A DNA stretch of 64,000 bases from an uncultured bacterium (GTDB lineage Bacteria > Omnitrophota > Omnitrophia > Omnitrophales > JACQLI01), in assembly GCA_964372875.1 (NCBI GenBank), contig CAYJTB010000003.1, positions 9,902-73,901 of the forward strand. Reading direction: 5' to 3'. Within the stretch, counting starts at the first letter, position 1. Each line of letters starts with the position of its first letter. A program made the position numbers. Positions 27,201 to 33,200 of this stretch are shown here, piece by piece.

Positions 27201-30200
27201 GGGATATCGACATCCACGAAAACCGGGACCAGACCGTAAAAAAGAATCGGATTGACGGTCGTAGGAAAGGATGCCGCGGCCGTGATCACCTCATCGCCTG
27301 CCCTAAGTGCCTGCTCGCCGAGCGTTGGAGATGTCAGCGCAGAAACAGCGAGAAGATTGGCGGAGGATCCAGAGTTTGCAGTTGAAACATATTTCACACC
27401 TAAATATTGCGCGAGTCGGCTTTCAAAGGCCTCGTTGAATCTCCCCGAAGTAAGCCAAAAATCAAGCGAGGAGTCAACAAGAGACTGGAGTTCCTCGGGG
27501 CCATACACCCTTCCTGAGACAGGAATCGGTGTTGTCCCTGCTTCAAAAGCAGGTCTTTGATGCGCGAGCAAGGCATATTCCTCCACCAGTTCCAAAATTT
27601 TCTGGCGAAGGACCTCTGCGTTTAGTACAGTACTTTGTCTTGTCTGGTCCATGCCAATCCTTTGCGTAGAGCGGAGGTTAAATAGGCGTGTAATTGTTTC
27701 ACCGAATAATCATAAATTTTATCAGGCGACAAATTTTGGGTCTCTTTATACCAGGCCACGGTTTCGTTCACAGCTTCTGCCGTAGAAAAAATGGGCCGCC
27801 AGCCTAAATTCACTCTGGCCTTTGCAGAATCCAATTGCAGAAATTTCGCCTCATAGAGTTCACTTTGGTTTTTGTTATTTTCAGAAGCGATCCACGAACC
27901 TGTCCCCCAGGACCCAATGACCGATTGAGCGAGGTTGGAAACATTGAGTGCCTCTGAGGTATCCGGACCAAAATTCCAGGCGCTGGCAAAGTCCGCAGAA
28001 CCTTCGGCCTGGTGTTGGGCAAGCATGAGATACCCTGATAAGGCATCGAGAACATACTGCCAAGGCCGGACTGAGTTTGGATTTCTTAGAAGGATGGGTT
28101 GGGATTTTTTGAGTGCGTGAATACAATCGGGGATGAGACGGTCAAGACTCCAGTCTCCCCCTCCGATCACATTGCCTGCGCGGACAGAGCTTAAGGATGT
28201 TTTTGTTGTTCCAAAAAAGGACTGGCGAAAAGCGCGGGCGATTAATTCAGCCGAGCCTTTACTGGCACTATAAAGATCCTTACCGCCCATCCGGTCTTCT
28301 TCCTGGTAAGGTTTTCCCGAGCCGTCATTTTCATAGCATTTATCAGAGGTAACAATTTGGCAGATTTTGACAGAACCGTCTTGTCTCACTGCCTCCAAGA
28401 GATTCGCCGTTCCCATGATATTGGTAGAAAGAGTTTCAAGAGGCTCGGCGTAAGAAGTCCGGACAAGAGATTGCGCGGCTAAATGAAAAACAATTTCTGG
28501 GTTTGTCTCGTCCATCACTTGGCAGAGCTGGCTAAAATTTCGAACATCGCCTTCAATCGAGCGGATTCGCTGGGCGAGTTGAGCTTGCTCAAAAAAACTG
28601 GGTTCGCTCGGGGGCTTGAGTGAATAACCTGTGACGTCCGCACCCATTTCAGCGAGCCAGAGAGAAAGCCAAGCGCCTTTAAAACCGGTGTGGCCGGTCA
28701 CCAAAATCTTTTTGCCGCGGAAATAATCGTTAAAAAGTCTCATTCCTTCCAAACCTTCCACGGCGCTTTTCCTGAACTCCAAAGCTCTTCCAGCATTTTT
28801 TTATCCCGCAAAGTATCCATGGCCTGCCAAAAACCGTCGTGTTCAAAGGCGGCTAATTTCCCTTTTTTAGATAAAACTTTGAGGGTGTCGTGCTCCCAGA
28901 TCGCGGAATCGTCCTCGATATATTTTAAAACGCCGGGCTCCAATACAAAAAAGCCTCCATTGATCCATGCGCCGTCTCCGGGAATTTTTTCATCAAACTT
29001 TGTGACCCACGCGTCTTTTACCTTCAAGGAACCAAATCTCCCGGGCGGTCTAACGGCCGTTACCGTTGCCAGTGATTTATTCTTTTTATGGAACACAACG
29101 GCCTCTTTGATATTCACGTCGCTCACACCGTCACCATAAGTCATGCAAAAAGTTTGATGGCCCACATAGTCTTTCACGCGTTTGAGCCGGCCTCCTGTCA
29201 TGGTGCCTTCCCCCGTATCCACCAAGGTGACTCGCCAAGGCTCGCCAAAATTTTGATGCACGGTCATTTTGTTTTTGGAGAGGTCAAATGTGACATCCGA
29301 CATATGTAAAAAGTAATTGGCGAAATATTCTTTGATGATATAGCCTTTGTATCCGCAGCAGATGATGAAATCGTGAATCCCGTGAGAGGAATAGATCTTC
29401 ATGATGTGCCAAAGGATCGGCTTCCCACCGATCATGACCATCGGTTTGGGTGTTGACTCGGTCTCCTCAGAAATCCGAGTTCCAAATCCTCCTGCAAGAA
29501 TGACGGCTTTCATTTCGGGTGGGTCTTAACCGGCCATCGCCGGCGTTTTTCCGAGCCGGACCACAAAATCATACACGCGCTGCTCAAACAAACTCCGCGG
29601 CTGAAAAGGTCCTTTGCGGAGCATGGCCTTCATGAGTCTCACAAGCCGGCTGGGCTTACGAAGATAACTGAGGATATAAAAAACAGACATGCCAATGACA
29701 CGGTAAAAAAGAATTTCCAGCGGTTTTACATTCCGGCAGAATGTTTTTGGAACCGTAAAATCAAATTGGGTCATCAGTTCCTCAAAATAGACATCGTTAA
29801 TCTCTTTGATCGCATTCTCTTTGCGCAGTTCGTGAAAAAGTTCGGATCCCGGATACGGCGAAAAGGTCGAGATGTTGCAATCGTCCGCCTTCATCCAAGC
29901 CAGCCTCCAAACAAAAAGAAGGGTTTGAAGAATGTCTTTTCGCGTCTCAAAGGGAAATCCAATGATGAAATTAACTTTGACGACAATGTTGTAACGAAGG
30001 GCGGCCGCAATGGAGCGAGTGAGATTGTTCAAATCCACACGTTTTTTAATTCGGTCCAGCGTTCGTTGGGAGCCGCTCTCAGGGGCATAGACCAAAAATT
30101 CGCAGCCGGTCTTAGCAAGACCTTGAATCACTTCTTCATCCAGGCTCTCGGAACGCGTGCCTGAAGGAAGCTGCCACGCAATCTGGACATTCCGTCTTTT

Positions 30201-33200
30201 CAGTTCAGCGATGAAATCGAGAATCCAACCCCGGCGAACAATGGCGGTCAAATCATAAAAATCAATGCTGTTCACTTTGTAGCGTTCGATATAAGTTTGG
30301 ATTTCATCCGCCACATCTTTGACAGGCCGCATCACATACCGGGTGGTCCACATTGTGGGATTGGAACAAAAGGTGCATTGATAAGGACAACCGCGCGTGG
30401 CAAGCATTGCAATATTACGTCCGTGTCCGATGCCCATGGTAAAGTTCGGTTGAAAATAACTTTCTAAATTAATCAAATCCCATGCGGGTCTCGGCATTTC
30501 TGTAATGTCGACGGACCGGGGGGACAAACCTGTTTGTTTAAAAATCCCGTCTTCTAAATAAGAAACTCCGCCCACTCCCCTTGCAGATTCACCGGAACGG
30601 AGCCGGTATACAAATTCCAAAAAGGCCATTTCTCCTTCTCCTGAAATCACGAAATCAATCTCTTTACAATCCTTAAGCGTATATTCCGGCAATGCGGTTG
30701 CATGCTCTCCCCCGACCACGATGGTTGCGCAGGGAAATTCTTGACGAATTTTCCGGATGTAATCGGAGATGAAAGGCCATTCTTGGGAAAACATGATCGA
30801 GATACCGATAATGTCGGAACCGGGATCGATTAGTTCCAGAGACTGTTTGACGTCAAGGCCCTGAATCTTAAATCTCCCGCTGGGGCTGAGCGTGATCCTG
30901 TCAGGATCGAGCCCCGGGCAATCAAGGATCCTCACCTGATACCCCGCCTTTTCTAAGACCGCGGCAAGGTAGGTCAGGCCCAGAGGCATGGTGAGTGGGG
31001 TGCTGTAGGAATTCTTTGAAAACACAATAGGAGGTTTGATTAAAGAAATGGGGCGTTTTGACCAAGGCTCGGGATTGCGGAAGACAGAAAATGCATCAGA
31101 GATACTCAAGGGGTGAGTGGGTTTGATATAATTGAAGTTTTTGGTAAGGGCGTTCATCCGTATTAGGGCTTTATTTTGTGACATATTATCACTATAATCA
31201 CAGTCTATTCAAGTAATATAAAACGACGTAACCCTTTTTATCTCGTGTAGATAGGTTTAAAAATCAGGTGGTTTTTTGAATCCTATGAACGACCAAAAAA
31301 TTGTAAAAAAAAATCAAAGCAGCATGACCAGTCGCTATCAATCCCAAATAGTCCAAGAAGACATTGCCAATCTCGCAAAATCACTAGAAGAATATTATCC
31401 GAGCTTTGAGGGCGCGAGTTTTCTCATCACGGGCGCCGGCGGGTTCCTAGGAACCTATATCACGCTCCTCCTCCAGTACCTGAATGACAAGGTTTTAAAC
31501 CGTAAGGCCACAGCCATTCTTCTCGACAACTTTGTCACCGGCTATGAACAGCTTGCGATTTCATCCAATTCTCATCTTCACTTTACACGCCACAATGTGG
31601 TAGAGCCTTTTCGCACGGATCAGCCCATTGATTACATTCTTCACCTGGCAGGGATTGCATCTCCGGTGTATTACACAAAATACCCTATTGAGACTATGGA
31701 TGTTGCCACGCTAGGGACACGCAACATGTTGGATTTTGCACACAAGAAACATGTCAAAAGCATTCTTTTTGCAAGCTCAAGCGAAGTTTACGGCGATCCT
31801 GACAATGAACATGTGCCGACACCGGAAACCTACAATGGCAATGTTTCGATCACGGGACCCCGGGCCTGTTACGATGAATCGAAGCGTTTCGGTGAGACGC
31901 TTTCCATCAACTATTGGAGAATTTATAACGTCCCCGTTAAAATTGTACGGCCGTTTAATGTGTATGGGCCGGGCATCCGGCCTGATGATTACCGGGTACT
32001 TCCCAATTTTATCGAACACGGCCTTCGCCGTGAGCCTCTCCCTATCCATGGCGCCGGCAGAAACACCCGGTCCTTTTGTTACATCAATGACGCGATTGAA
32101 GCCTTCTTCCTGGTTTTGTTCTCCCAAGCGGACGGTGAATCTTTTAATGTCGGCAATCCTGAGATAGAAATTTCTGTGCGCGAACTGGGTGAACTGGTTG
32201 CGGAATTCATGCCTCATCCAGTGGAATTGGTAAATATCGATCCGCCTCACGCGGTCTACGCGTCAAGTGATCCCAAAAGACGCTGCCCGGATATCACCAA
32301 ACTTAAAAAAGTGACAGGGTTCGAACCTCAATATGATTTGAAGACCGGACTCAAAAGAACGATTGATTGGTTCCGTGGAATTTAAGAAAGGAAAGAATAT
32401 GGAAGTTTTAAAACATATTGACTCCTCGGCGGTTGACATACGCGGTGCCATCACCAATATCTTTGAAGGCCGTATCGAACACATCGCCATCATCACCTCT
32501 AAAAAAGGAACGGTTCGGGCCAATCATTATCATAAAGAAGACCAGCAATATATTTATCTGGTTTCAGGCGCTTACGAAAGCCACTCTTGCGATATCCATC
32601 ATCCCCAGAAGCGCCAAGTCCTGCATGTGAAGCCGGGCGATATCGTCTACACGCCTCCCCTCATCGCCCATGCTCAGAAATTTACGGAGGACTCGATTTT
32701 TCTTGCTCTGAGCACAAGACAAAGAGAGCAGGGAAAGTACGAGCAGGACACCTTGGCCTACCAAGTGATCGAAGGCTATCTCAACCCCGAGTTAAAGACG
32801 CGTTAATTGGCTCATCGAATTGTTGTTATTTCCGGTGCGGCAACAGGTCTGGGGCTAAGCCTCAGCAAACTTTTTCTGGCCGCGGGCGACACAGTTTACG
32901 GCGTCACACTTACCAAGAAACACTGGCCCTCGGCAAAAAAATCTCTTTCGGCCTTTTCCAGATTCTTTCTCTTTCAAGCAGATCTGACTAAAGAATTCGA
33001 GGTAAAACGCTTTCTCCAGTCCGTAAAAAAACGCCTCGGGCGGATCGATGCGCTTATTAACAATGCAGGCTACACCAATAAAATCAGCAGAATAGAAAAA
33101 GAGACGCTCAAAGAATTTCAAAAAAATCTGAGTTCCAACCTCTTGTCAGCATTTCTTATGTGTAAGTACGCGATTCCTATTTTCAAAAAGCAGCAGTCAG

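Follow-up and report, generated by a model that had tools for sequence, protein, structure and literature searches.

The presence of two B12-binding-domain radical SAM proteins, here rSAM1 and rSAM2, in a cell-surface glycan locus of an uncultured Omnitrophota bacterium raises the question of what chemistry such enzymes contribute to a structural glycan. An initial annotation of the window, meaning the whole stretch of 64,000 nucleotides analyzed, had described them as paralogs and suggested that they give rise to C-methyl or otherwise radical-modified sugars. No earlier description of this biological setting was found; specifically, the literature yielded no paper that places B12-binding radical SAM enzymes in LPS or capsule loci, nor one that connects radical SAM enzymes with nonulosonic acids. 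As detailed below, rSAM1 and rSAM2 are probably sugar-tailoring enzymes, with C-methylation as the leading guess for both.

Both minus-strand open reading frames are intact (Table 1), and the features by which they had been recognized, an N-terminal cobalamin-binding-like domain and an RGCP(Y/F)xCTFC cluster motif, are found in each. Specifically, the Pfam B12-binding (PF02310) and Radical_SAM (PF04055) models pass their cutoffs in both proteins at E-values between 1e-18 and 1e-28, well beyond chance, and the cluster motifs read TRGCPYQCTFC in rSAM1 (aa 263-273) and TRGCPFRCTFC in rSAM2 (aa 208-218). The cluster cysteines are invariant among 30 homologs of rSAM1 (C266, C270, C273) and 36 homologs of rSAM2 (C211, C215, C218), as are, within the rSAM1 family, the GGEH and GEGE motifs of the B12-binding-like domain. 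Translation of rSAM2 probably begins at the ATG at 57956, giving 520 aa, because of a GGAGGA Shine-Dalgarno sequence, the overlap (TAATG) with the stop codon of the upstream NeuB fusion gene, and the equal length of the orthologs P0121 and P0122 (520 aa).

Table 1. Features of the two radical SAM operons and the divergent module (positions in the window).
Feature	Position	Strand	Residues	Basis
PMT_2-family GT-C membrane glycosyltransferase, predicted user of lipid-linked sugar	22955..24400	(-)		PF13231
PgfS/ArnC-like GT2, predicted polyprenyl-phosphate sugar synthase	24385..25386	(-)		PF00535
SDR-family epimerase/reductase, candidate C-4 ketoreductase of dideoxyhexose route	25383..26399	(-)		PF01370
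RfbH/E1, CDP-6-deoxy-4-hexulose 3-dehydrase (PMP + [2Fe-2S] type)	26309..27652	(-)		NF011936, 740 bits (cutoff 423)
RfbG, CDP-glucose 4,6-dehydratase	27622..28782	(-)		TIGR02622, 453 bits (cutoff 278)
RfbF, glucose-1-phosphate cytidylyltransferase	28740..29513	(-)		TIGR02623, 449.8 bits (cutoff 300)
rSAM1, B12-binding-domain radical SAM protein, head of long operon	29526..31184	(-)	552 aa	
rSAM1 radical SAM core	29913..30401	(-)	aa 262-424	PF04055, 72.4 bits (cutoff 29.5)
rSAM1 CX3CX2C	30366-30389	(-)	aa 266-273	
rSAM1 B12-binding-like Rossmann domain	30612..30989	(-)	aa 66-191	PF02310, 67.6 bits (cutoff 32.1)
Divergent module: SDR epimerase/dehydratase, cupin, SDR, sugar 3-C-methyltransferase (33544-34815), GT2	31276..35582	(+)		Pfam
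Rest of nonulosonic-acid operon: FkbM methyltransferase, methyltransferase, 634-aa BFO_1060-like GT, CMP-sugar-acid cytidylyltransferase (CTP_transf_3), class III aminotransferase, methyltransferase, Wzx-type flippase	47032..55273	(-)		Pfam, NCBIfam
NAD(P)-binding oxidoreductase	55270..56394	(-)	~374 aa from ATG 56394	PF03807, PF03446
rSAM2, B12-binding-domain radical SAM protein	56394..57971	(-)	525 aa from GTG	
rSAM2 radical SAM core	56889..57359	(-)	aa 205-361	PF04055, 100 bits (cutoff 29.5)
rSAM2 CX3CX2C	57318-57341	(-)	aa 211-218	
rSAM2 B12-binding-like domain	57570..57896	(-)	aa 26-134	PF02310, 69.5 bits (cutoff 32.1)
FAD/amine-oxidase/GLF-like::NeuB fusion	57956..60340	(-)	794 aa	PF03102 (298 bits), PF01593, PF13450
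Sulfotransferase + SDR, upstream genes of rSAM2 operon	60334..62095	(-)		Pfam; order kept in L174

The description of the two proteins as paralogs holds at the level of the superfamily but not in the sense of recent paralogs: they share 26% identity across the Rossmann and TIM-barrel core, and their C-terminal ~80-110 residues are unrelated to each other, whereas orthologs in other genomes are 50-94% identical to rSAM1 or rSAM2, each far closer than the two are to one another. They are anciently diverged class-B-type radical SAM enzymes, related only distantly. The rSAM1 family is found in at least 574 species-representative genomes from many phyla, and rSAM2 orthologs chiefly in Omnitrophota. 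Both families are conserved in glycan loci; no studied member of either was found, and automated pipelines label many of their homologs 'BchE'. Organisms in culture that carry a family member include Magnetospirillum moscoviense BB-1, Magnetospirillum sp. LM-5 and Minicystis rosea.

Neither protein reaches the NCBIfam cutoff of the curated BchE, HpnJ, PhpK/Sden_1168, AprD4 or HemN-like families, nor that of any other curated family, methyltransferases included, the best scores being 165 bits for Sden_1168 (cutoff 575) and 195 bits for BchE (cutoff 481). The BchE, HpnJ, PhpK and Sden_1168 models align over both domains of the two proteins, and two of the top-scoring models, BchE (142 and 195 bits) and HpnJ (120 and 183 bits, cutoff 578), represent non-methylating enzymes, namely the anaerobic Mg-protoporphyrin cyclase and an enzyme of hopanoid cyclitol-ether formation; these scores, however, lie far under the cutoffs, and Pfam searches revealed no porphyrin or hopanoid genes near rSAM1 or rSAM2. 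With the AprD4 family model the two proteins score 88-89 bits (cutoff 500), and only the radical SAM half is aligned. Assignment to a non-methylating subfamily of the HemN-like kind, named in the initial annotation as the outcome contrary to methylation, was not obtained, the HemN-like score being 32.8 bits (cutoff 504).

Among solved structures, the nearest relatives by sequence are AprD4 (PDB 6fd2), the cobalamin-free 1,2-diol dehydratase of the apramycin pathway, and the methylase MgmA, with AprD4 the top match for both proteins (E-values of 2.5e-19 and 1.1e-19). AF2 models (pLDDT 83.7 for rSAM1, which has the class B fold, and 87.5 for rSAM2) match the cobalamin-dependent structures TsrM, MgmA, CysS, TokK and OxsB with E-values of 1e-15 to 1e-25, and lie about equally close to the methylases of this set (TsrM, MgmA, TokK, CysS), to OxsB, and to AprD4, which is among the top fold matches (TM at most 0.66 query-normalised and 0.76 target-normalised). 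C-methylation is therefore put forward as a guess, because no curated cutoff is reached and the folds fit methylases, OxsB and AprD4 about equally. The earlier proposal is supported as regards class-B-type architecture, fold and operon membership, but methyl transfer itself is tentative, given the lack of a matching methyltransferase family and the proximity of AprD4.

Both genes lie inside sugar-nucleotide/glycan operons, and not just near them. Specifically, rfbF begins 12 nt past the rSAM1 stop codon, and E1 matches the Yersinia E1 structures 3bcx/3bb8 with 638 bits, in an alignment that includes the HH motif and the Cys cluster and shows ~70% identity by a rough count. The SDR that follows reaches no specific family cutoff. 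The GT2 matches PgfS (222.7 bits) and ArnC (125 bits) over its full length, both under cutoff, and carries two C-terminal TM helices (aa 229-247 and 271-289), and the GT-C protein has ten hydrophobic segments. Together, RfbF, RfbG, E1 and the reductase would convert CDP-glucose by way of CDP-4-keto-6-deoxyglucose to a 3,6-dideoxyhexose, which the GT2 would transfer to polyprenyl phosphate and the GT-C enzyme would use to decorate an acceptor outside the cytoplasm. The divergent module is conserved in two other loci (L171, L173).

Similarly, rSAM2, whose stop codon overlaps the start of the oxidoreductase gene (TGATG), is translationally coupled between the FAD-oxidoreductase::NeuB fusion and this NAD-binding protein. 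The fusion scores 379 bits with the NeuB_NnaB model and 312 bits with PseI, both under cutoff; L170 and L174 likewise have such a fusion next to rSAM2, together with oxidoreductase homologs of 367-380 aa. The operon would use its NeuB-type synthase to produce a nine-carbon sugar acid that is activated, methylated, aminated and sulfated. A promoter-like site, a consensus match only, is located at 62417-62390 within the 408-bp gap upstream of the sulfotransferase and SDR genes.

Comparison across genomes reveals that L004/L005, L012 and L173 repeat the gene order rSAM-RfbF-RfbG-RfbH-SDR-GT2, and L011 does so through RfbH, where the contig ends. Of 50 complete neighbourhoods of rSAM1-family genes, 10 include RfbF or RfbH at a distance of up to 5 kb (RfbH in 7), compared with none of 20 control loci, these being other B12-rSAM loci; most rSAM1-family loci lack both. 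Orthologs of rSAM2 with 57-74% identity are not next to NeuB, which is 5 kb off in L010 and was not found within 10 kb in L009, L171 or L172. That association with RfbF/RfbH or NeuB is not universal counts against a link to one specific pathway.

We tentatively favor the possibility that these class-B-type enzymes, each co-transcribed with a sugar pathway, tailor that sugar or its lipid-linked form by canonical methyl transfer. From the N-terminus onward, each has a putatively cobalamin-binding Rossmann domain, then a [4Fe-4S]/SAM TIM barrel, and finally a helical region particular to its family. A 5'-deoxyadenosyl radical would remove a hydrogen at an unactivated sp3 carbon, to which methylcobalamin would supply the methyl group, yielding a C-methyl or alkyl sugar. 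Here cobalamin binding, substrate and methyl transfer are what we infer. Substrates that may be considered are CDP-4-keto-6-deoxyglucose, CDP-4-keto-3,6-dideoxyglucose, the reduced CDP-3,6-dideoxyhexose and its undecaprenyl-phosphate derivative, and CMP-nonulosonates. The domains, CX3CX2C barrel, overall fold and setting in a sugar-modifying gene cluster are shared with the class B sp3 C-methyltransferases (GenK, GenD1, Fms7, Fom3, MoeK5, and the solved TokK, CysS and MgmA/QCMT). Here, however, the genes lie in a locus for a structural glycan of the cell surface, with CDP-dideoxyhexose or nonulosonic acid genes, and not in an antibiotic cluster, and identity to solved class B members is 12-21%. 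Homologs of rSAM1 also occur in single-cell genomes of Pelagibacteraceae (L031, L036), a lineage generally held not to use B12, which counts against cobalamin-dependent methylation by the family. Seven conventional SAM methyltransferases, as initially annotated, are confirmed (at 33544, 36768, 40790, 41779, 48541, 53196 and 54248), and their presence also counts against methylation by rSAM1 and rSAM2. The first (33544-34815), which the initial annotation had not set apart from the others, is a TylC3/TcaB9-type sugar 3-C-methyltransferase (TylC3 4rv9, E-value 1e-85; TcaB9, 2e-79); C-branched sugars are therefore possible without radical SAM enzymes, and this enzyme alone could account for a branched sugar.

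That both enzymes instead perform non-methylating radical chemistry on a sugar, with or without cobalamin, is somewhat less probable. Such chemistry might comprise AprD4-like 1,2-diol dehydration/deoxygenation with ketone reduction by an SDR, radical epimerisation, or HpnJ/OxsB-like ring contraction. The prominence of AprD4, an aminosugar enzyme of similar two-domain fold with a sugar substrate and a partner reductase, is consistent with this alternative, as are the BchE and HpnJ matches, the SDR genes found in 23 of 79 rSAM1-family loci and often adjacent, and a YdjC (HpnK-like) gene near the homolog in L006. A 2026 review further reports that neither sequence nor structure separates alkylating from non-methylating B12-rSAMs, and that the B12-rSAM network includes AprD4 and ArsL, which bind no cobalamin (PMC12931638). 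The same review finds C-methyltransferases in every characterised group and methylases to be the majority of characterised members, which argues for methylation (PMC12931638); in addition, unlike cobalamin-free AprD4, whose model aligns only with the radical SAM half, both proteins match the B12-binding model well, and the dideoxyhexose operon already holds dedicated 6- and 3-deoxygenation enzymes.

Less probable still is a substrate other than a nucleotide sugar. It could be the monosaccharide that the PgfS/ArnC-like GT2 would link to polyprenyl phosphate, or else a substituent that is not a sugar, or the glycan once assembled. Such a reaction would parallel the predicted hopanoid route, in which the GT2 HpnI joins a sugar to lipid and HpnK and the B12-rSAM HpnJ, thought to act on the lipid-linked aminosugar, then modify it. 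A PgfS/ArnC-like two-TM GT2 is the commonest rSAM1-family neighbour: it occurs in 33 of 79 loci, 21 of its copies are no more than two genes away from the rSAM, and 16 of 50 complete neighbourhoods, but none of the 20 controls, have one at up to 5 kb. Identity within the rSAM1 family stays at 40-67% among loci that carry different sugar-nucleotide genes, the C-termini of both proteins form basic, amphipathic helices, and a Wzx flippase is the sole recurrent neighbour of rSAM2 orthologs. In 34 of 78 loci, a gene no more than two places away encodes a protein with at least seven TM segments; however, of ten such neighbours tested, two match PMT_2 or GT87 and eight match no known family. Moreover, the GT2 association is limited to one third of loci, neither rSAM1 nor rSAM2 has a predicted TM segment, and radical SAM enzymes are not known to act on undecaprenyl-phosphate sugars.

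Comparison with the 3,6-dideoxyhexose pathway of Salmonella and Yersinia (rfbFGH/ddhABC) raises a final alternative. RfbF, RfbG and E1 pass the equivalog cutoffs, but a B12-type radical SAM gene heads the operon and no E3 gene (RfbI/DdhD/AscD) was detected in the window by Pfam analysis of 53 selected ORFs of at least 120 aa, all glycan-operon genes included; nor was any FNR-like or [2Fe-2S] flavoprotein found in that set or seen in L004 or L173. With E1 of the Fe-S type, rSAM1 might replace E3 in supplying electrons to the E1 [2Fe-2S] cluster. This role is highly improbable: RfbH is missing from most rSAM1-family loci, other E1-like dehydrases are known to use general cellular reductases, and the family-wide conservation of the SAM-cluster cysteines and radical SAM core argues for radical SAM catalysis. 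A further difference from the Salmonella and Yersinia pathway is that the product here appears to be routed to a polyprenyl-phosphate GT2 and a GT-C enzyme.

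Both open reading frames singled out in the initial annotation as B12-binding radical SAM enzymes, here termed rSAM1 and rSAM2, are genuine minus-strand genes, and the Pfam check found both expected domains above cutoff in each protein. Specifically, an N-terminal B12-binding domain (PF02310; 67.6 bits in rSAM1 and 69.5 bits in rSAM2 against a cutoff of 32.1) is followed by a Radical_SAM core (PF04055; 72.4 and 100 bits against a cutoff of 29.5). Within this core lies the CX3CX2C [4Fe-4S]/SAM motif of the radical SAM superfamily, which reads as first described (TRGCPYQCTFC in rSAM1, TRGCPFRCTFC in rSAM2) and whose cysteines, C266/270/273 and C211/215/218, respectively, are invariant in both family alignments. 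The PF02310 Rossmann domain is predicted to bind cobalamin, giving both proteins the apparent architecture of class B enzymes. The count of seven conventional methyltransferases alongside them was likewise correct when the window ORFs were searched with Pfam. The true start of rSAM2 is most likely the ATG at 57956, yielding 520 aa, since this codon follows a GGAGGA Shine-Dalgarno sequence and overlaps the upstream stop as TAATG, and since the closest orthologs are also 520 aa long.

Confident AF2 models (pLDDT 83.7 for rSAM1, 87.5 for rSAM2) predict for both proteins a two-domain fold like that of solved cobalamin-dependent radical SAM enzymes, with Foldseek matches to TsrM, MgmA, CysS, OxsB and TokK at E values of 1e-15 to 1e-25 and query-normalised TM-scores of 0.56-0.64. 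The fold of AprD4, which is cobalamin-free, matches both models equally well. By sequence, the nearest solved structures to both proteins are AprD4 (E about 1e-19) and 9ccb, which is MgmA, the MCR glutamine C-methylase. While AprD4 is thus a best sequence match with a similar fold, the AprD4 diol dehydratase model (NF033070) aligns only to the radical SAM half of the two proteins, at 88 and 89 bits against 500, so that neither protein can be placed in this curated family.

No curated NCBIfam model, methylating or non-methylating, reaches its cutoff with either protein. The best scores of rSAM1 are to the Sden_1168 P-methyltransferase (165 bits against 575), BchE (TIGR02026; 142 against 481) and HpnJ (TIGR03471; 120 against 578), and those of rSAM2 are to BchE (195), HpnJ (183) and PhpK (164 against 600); the two proteins are therefore not assignable to BchE, HpnJ, PhpK, AprD4 or similar families. 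Membership in the curated P-methyltransferase families fails on the same grounds, the remaining scores being 159 bits for rSAM2 with Sden_1168 and 94.5 bits for rSAM1 with PhpK, and phosphonate biosynthesis is not suggested by any Pfam domain assigned to the ORFs scanned in the window. Membership in a curated class B C-methyltransferase family of the GenK/Fom3/TokK type was also rejected, as every NCBIfam methyltransferase cutoff is missed by rSAM1 and rSAM2: KedN5 (53 and 80 bits against 700), RiPP C-methyltransferase (83 and 95 against 282), HpnR (101 and 104 against 650), MCR-Gln methyltransferase (85 and 136 against 360) and Trp 2-C-methyltransferase (43 and 46 against 500). Assignment to coproporphyrinogen oxidase-like enzymes, which the initial annotation had named as evidence against its proposal, was not observed: rSAM1 scores 32.8 bits against 504 with the HemN-like model, and this model is absent among the best 25 NCBIfam models listed for rSAM2.

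The description of the two genes as paralogous stands insofar as they belong to one superfamily, with 26% identity by BLASTP (E 6e-44). Their profile-profile alignment is limited to the Rossmann and barrel core (rSAM1 residues 35-476), and the last 80-110 residues form family-specific helices in the AF2 models. Homologs of rSAM1 at 50-94% identity occur in MAGs labelled Omnitrophica/Omnitrophota, Acidobacteria, Bdellovibrionales and Proteobacteria, while about 46 clusters of orthologs share 50-89% identity with rSAM2, the named ones being Omnitrophica/Omnitrophota, beyond which identity falls to 45% or less. Because each protein is much nearer to proteins of other genomes than to its counterpart, the two represent old families and not a local duplication.

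Coordinates of the two radical SAM genes and of associated features in the window
Feature	Position	Strand	Remarks
rSAM1	29526-31184	-	552 aa ORF
RfbF, glucose-1-phosphate cytidylyltransferase	starts 12 nt downstream of rSAM1	-	450 bits; cutoff 300
RfbG, CDP-glucose 4,6-dehydratase	after RfbF	-	453 bits; cutoff 278
RfbH (E1), CDP-6-deoxy-4-hexulose 3-dehydrase	26309-27652	-	740 bits; cutoff 423
SDR	after RfbH	-	Pfam
GT2, two C-terminal TM helices	24385	-	full-length alignment to PgfS and ArnC
PMT_2 GT-C	last listed gene of rSAM1 operon, after GT2	-	Pfam
Divergent five-gene block	31276-35582	+	SDR, cupin, second SDR, sugar 3-C-methyltransferase, GT2
rSAM2	56394-57971	-	525 aa ORF
FAD/amine-oxidase/GLF-like::NeuB fusion	57956-60340	-	794 aa
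CDP-alcohol phosphatidyltransferase	37549-38373	-	within glycan locus
Carbamoyltransferase	42621-44420	-	within glycan locus
Sulfotransferase	61124-62095	-	within glycan locus
GT2 + GT-C-type membrane protein pairs	22955-25386, 38336-40788, 44625-47035, 62504-63991
GT2::GT9 fusion, heptosyltransferase-like	18025-20055	-	676 aa
GT2::HAD/PNK3P phosphatase fusion	13151-14464	-	437 aa
DUF6602 protein + 1208-aa protein	408-4805	-	G+C 0.40

The rSAM1 gene is the first of a long minus-strand operon in which RfbF, RfbG and RfbH (E1), the three enzymes defining a CDP-3,6-dideoxyhexose pathway, all score above their equivalog cutoffs. Consistent with this assignment, E1 matches the Yersinia E1 structure 3bcx at 638 bits, in an alignment that pairs both the His-His motif and the Cys cluster. 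Read together with its downstream glycosyltransferases, the operon encodes a CDP-3,6-dideoxyhexose pathway whose product appears to pass, by way of a polyprenyl-phosphate sugar, to decoration by a GT-C. No ferredoxin/FNR-type protein that could represent E3, the partner reductase (RfbI/DdhD/AscD), was found among 53 selected ORFs of at least 120 aa, a set that included every glycan-operon gene; an Fe-S-type E1 is thus accompanied by no E3 gene in the window, nor in two syntenic loci of other genomes (L004, L173; loci of other genomes bear L-numbers). Upstream, the divergent block encodes a sugar 3-C-methyltransferase matching TylC3 (4rv9; E 1e-85) and TcaB9 (2e-79), whose presence means that a classical route to a C-branched deoxysugar already exists in the glycan locus. 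The block, which is kept as a unit in L171 (13416-17802) and L173 (5580-9874), is predicted to make a 3-C-methyl-6-deoxyhexose, and as it has no nucleotidyltransferase of its own, it probably draws on the CDP-4-keto-6-deoxyglucose pool.

Relatives of rSAM1 number at least 574 in a scan of one genome per species, and in an exhaustive search more than 150 representatives of 50% identity clusters align with it over nearly full length. Among the carriers in culture are Magnetospirillum moscoviense BB-1, Magnetospirillum sp. LM-5, Minicystis rosea and Spirulina; Pelagibacteraceae SAGs also have family genes. The order rSAM-RfbF-RfbG-RfbH-SDR-GT2 is repeated in L004/L005, L012 and L173, and in L011 it runs up to RfbH before the short contig breaks off. 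When loci flanked on each side by 5 kb or more are counted, RfbF or RfbH (at least 45% identity) lies within 5 kb in 10 of 50 rSAM1-family loci and a PgfS/ArnC-like GT2, a predicted polyprenyl-phosphate sugar synthase, in 16 of 50, compared with none for either among 20 control loci of other B12-binding radical SAM genes (distant relatives of 38% identity or less, among matches listed in the metagenome scan for rSAM2 orthologs). Across all 79 family loci, the commonest neighbour is a two-TM GT2 (33/79), followed by SDR (23) and DegT-family (18) genes. A polytopic membrane protein lies within two genes of the rSAM1 homolog in 34 of 78 loci; only two of ten tested match known GT-C families, so a GT-C partnership for the family is tentative. 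By these counts, the rSAM1 family belongs to glycan loci and shows enrichment around both CDP-hexose genes and lipid-phosphate GT2s, but is tied to neither.

Several features of the wider family deserve mention. Family genes (45% identity) adjoin an RfbH-like gene (60-62%) in the Pelagibacteraceae SAGs L031 and L036, which are SAR11-type genomes; the SAR11 lineage is generally regarded as independent of cobalamin, and this occurrence calls for caution in assuming B12 use. Distant homologs are found inside giant proteins of 1312-2331 aa (P0342, P0345, P0355, P0368) with up to five B12-binding radical SAM-like stretches, and two or three B12-binding radical SAM paralogs lie in tandem or nearby in many related glycan loci (L017, L032, L056, L069, L071, L077, L081, L082, L085, L087).

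The rSAM2 operon runs in the order sulfotransferase, SDR, NeuB fusion, rSAM2, NAD(P)-binding oxidoreductase, FkbM methyltransferase, methyltransferase, 634-aa BFO_1060-like glycosyltransferase, CTP_transf_3 cytidylyltransferase, class III aminotransferase, methyltransferase and Wzx. The start of rSAM2 overlaps the stop of the fusion gene, and its stop overlaps the oxidoreductase start as TGATG. A nonulosonic acid pathway is present, the operon encoding both a NeuB-type synthase (PF03102, 298 bits) and a CMP-sugar-acid synthetase (PF02348, 126 bits); the equivalog cutoffs of NeuB (379 against 400) and PseI (312 against 340) are narrowly missed, and hence no nonulosonic acid type is assigned. 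The window is syntenic with L170, L171, L173 and L174, and the operon arrangement, including the fusion-rSAM2 junction, is retained in L174 (89% identity) and L170 (86%). An Omnitrophota origin of the window is indicated by the named close hits of the two proteins and also by this synteny. At 57-74% identity NeuB is never adjacent to rSAM2 orthologs: it lies 5 kb off in L010, none is found within 10 kb in L009, L171 or L172, and L008 has other pseudaminic-acid-type genes nearby and no NeuB gene called. The sole recurrent neighbour at this distance is the Wzx flippase. Strict coupling of rSAM2 to NeuB was therefore rejected, and adjacency in relatives of at least 86% identity alone makes the nonulosonic-acid link strong locally and weak family-wide. 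In the fusion, a FAD/amine-oxidase/UDP-galactopyranose-mutase-like domain (aa 1-430) precedes a NeuB-type synthase with a SAF domain; L170 (794 aa) and L174 (803 aa) have kept the fusion, and we know of no described NeuB fusion to such a domain. L170 also carries a further 610-aa B12-binding radical SAM protein (at L170 1-449) upstream of the rSAM2 region.

Ordinary methyltransferases cannot carry out the chemistry open to radical SAM enzymes of the cobalamin type. The best-supported reading of rSAM1 and rSAM2, which we hold tentatively, is that they methylate an unactivated sugar carbon by the canonical class B mechanism, a reading in which we infer cobalamin binding, substrate and product alike. 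In this case rSAM1 would act on an intermediate of the dideoxyhexose route or on its product, perhaps when lipid-linked, and rSAM2 on a nonulosonic acid or its precursor. A 2026 review counts 83,589 B12-binding radical SAM sequences, sorted into more than 100 groups, and finds C-methyltransferases in every group that has been characterised (PMC12931638). Non-methylating members, the same review adds, are not set apart by any structural feature, and AprD4 and ArsL fall within the network yet bind no cobalamin (PMC12931638). The main rival, non-methylating radical chemistry such as an SDR-paired dehydration, epimerisation or ring contraction, is a serious if somewhat unlikely alternative. A variant in which the substrate is lipid-linked or not a sugar is improbable. 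That rSAM1 stands in for the missing E3 is very unlikely, because RfbH rarely co-occurs with its family and most members have no RfbH nearby.

Beyond C-methylation as such, the two families may constitute a new enzyme class that tailors structural glycans by radical chemistry, although this reading, taken whole with both substrates and the spread, is decidedly doubtful. Here rSAM1 would act on a 3,6-dideoxyhexose by alkylation or rearrangement, possibly with the sugar bound to polyprenyl phosphate and possibly within a Gtr/Arn-like periplasmic decoration route, and rSAM2 would act on a nonulosonic acid, lengthening or branching its skeleton by C-alkylation. If true, the products would be sugars new to glycochemistry and, given at least 574 species representatives with rSAM1-family genes, widespread across many phyla. 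Were sugars C-alkylated or rearranged, surface glycans would contain monosaccharides missed by standard composition analyses and databases, and cobalamin availability would shape cell-surface structure in many uncultured lineages; were the enzymes ordinary tailoring methylases, the gain would be a modest one in annotation. The architecture and fold of both proteins are standard, while their biological setting is undescribed: no characterised member of either family was found in the literature, full-text searches returned no relevant paper tying radical SAM/B12-type enzymes to nonulosonic acids, O-antigen, LPS, capsule or Omnitrophota, and the 2026 review, by whose account the largest sequence groups are still unexplored, contains none of the words sugar, glycan and polysaccharide (PMC12931638). 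A large cross-phylum family that can be tied to a defined, purchasable series of candidate substrates, the route from CDP-glucose to 3,6-dideoxyhexose, and present in culturable hosts (Magnetospirillum, Minicystis) makes rSAM1 readily testable, and turns an unknown enzyme of a glycan locus into a tractable biochemical question.

Elsewhere in the window, promoter and terminator scans gave counts not above chance. Pairs of a GT2 and a GT-C-type membrane protein recur, two comprising a PgfS/ArnC-like GT2 with PMT_2 and one a GT2 with DUF2079, and another PMT_2, the third, is found at the edge of the window; such repetition points to several independent routes of lipid-phosphate-sugar decoration within a single locus. 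The carbamoyltransferase, sulfotransferase and CDP-alcohol phosphatidyltransferase imply carbamoylated, sulfated and phospho-alcohol-substituted glycans, and two further GT2 fusions, to GT9 and to a HAD/PNK3P phosphatase, are encoded. Finally, the DUF6602 gene and its neighbour, whose 1208-aa product has an N-terminal HTH_3 as sole domain, form a stretch of low G+C (compared with about 0.47) adjoining the housekeeping genes GAPDH, Fmt, PriA and UDG, and may be a mobile or defence island.
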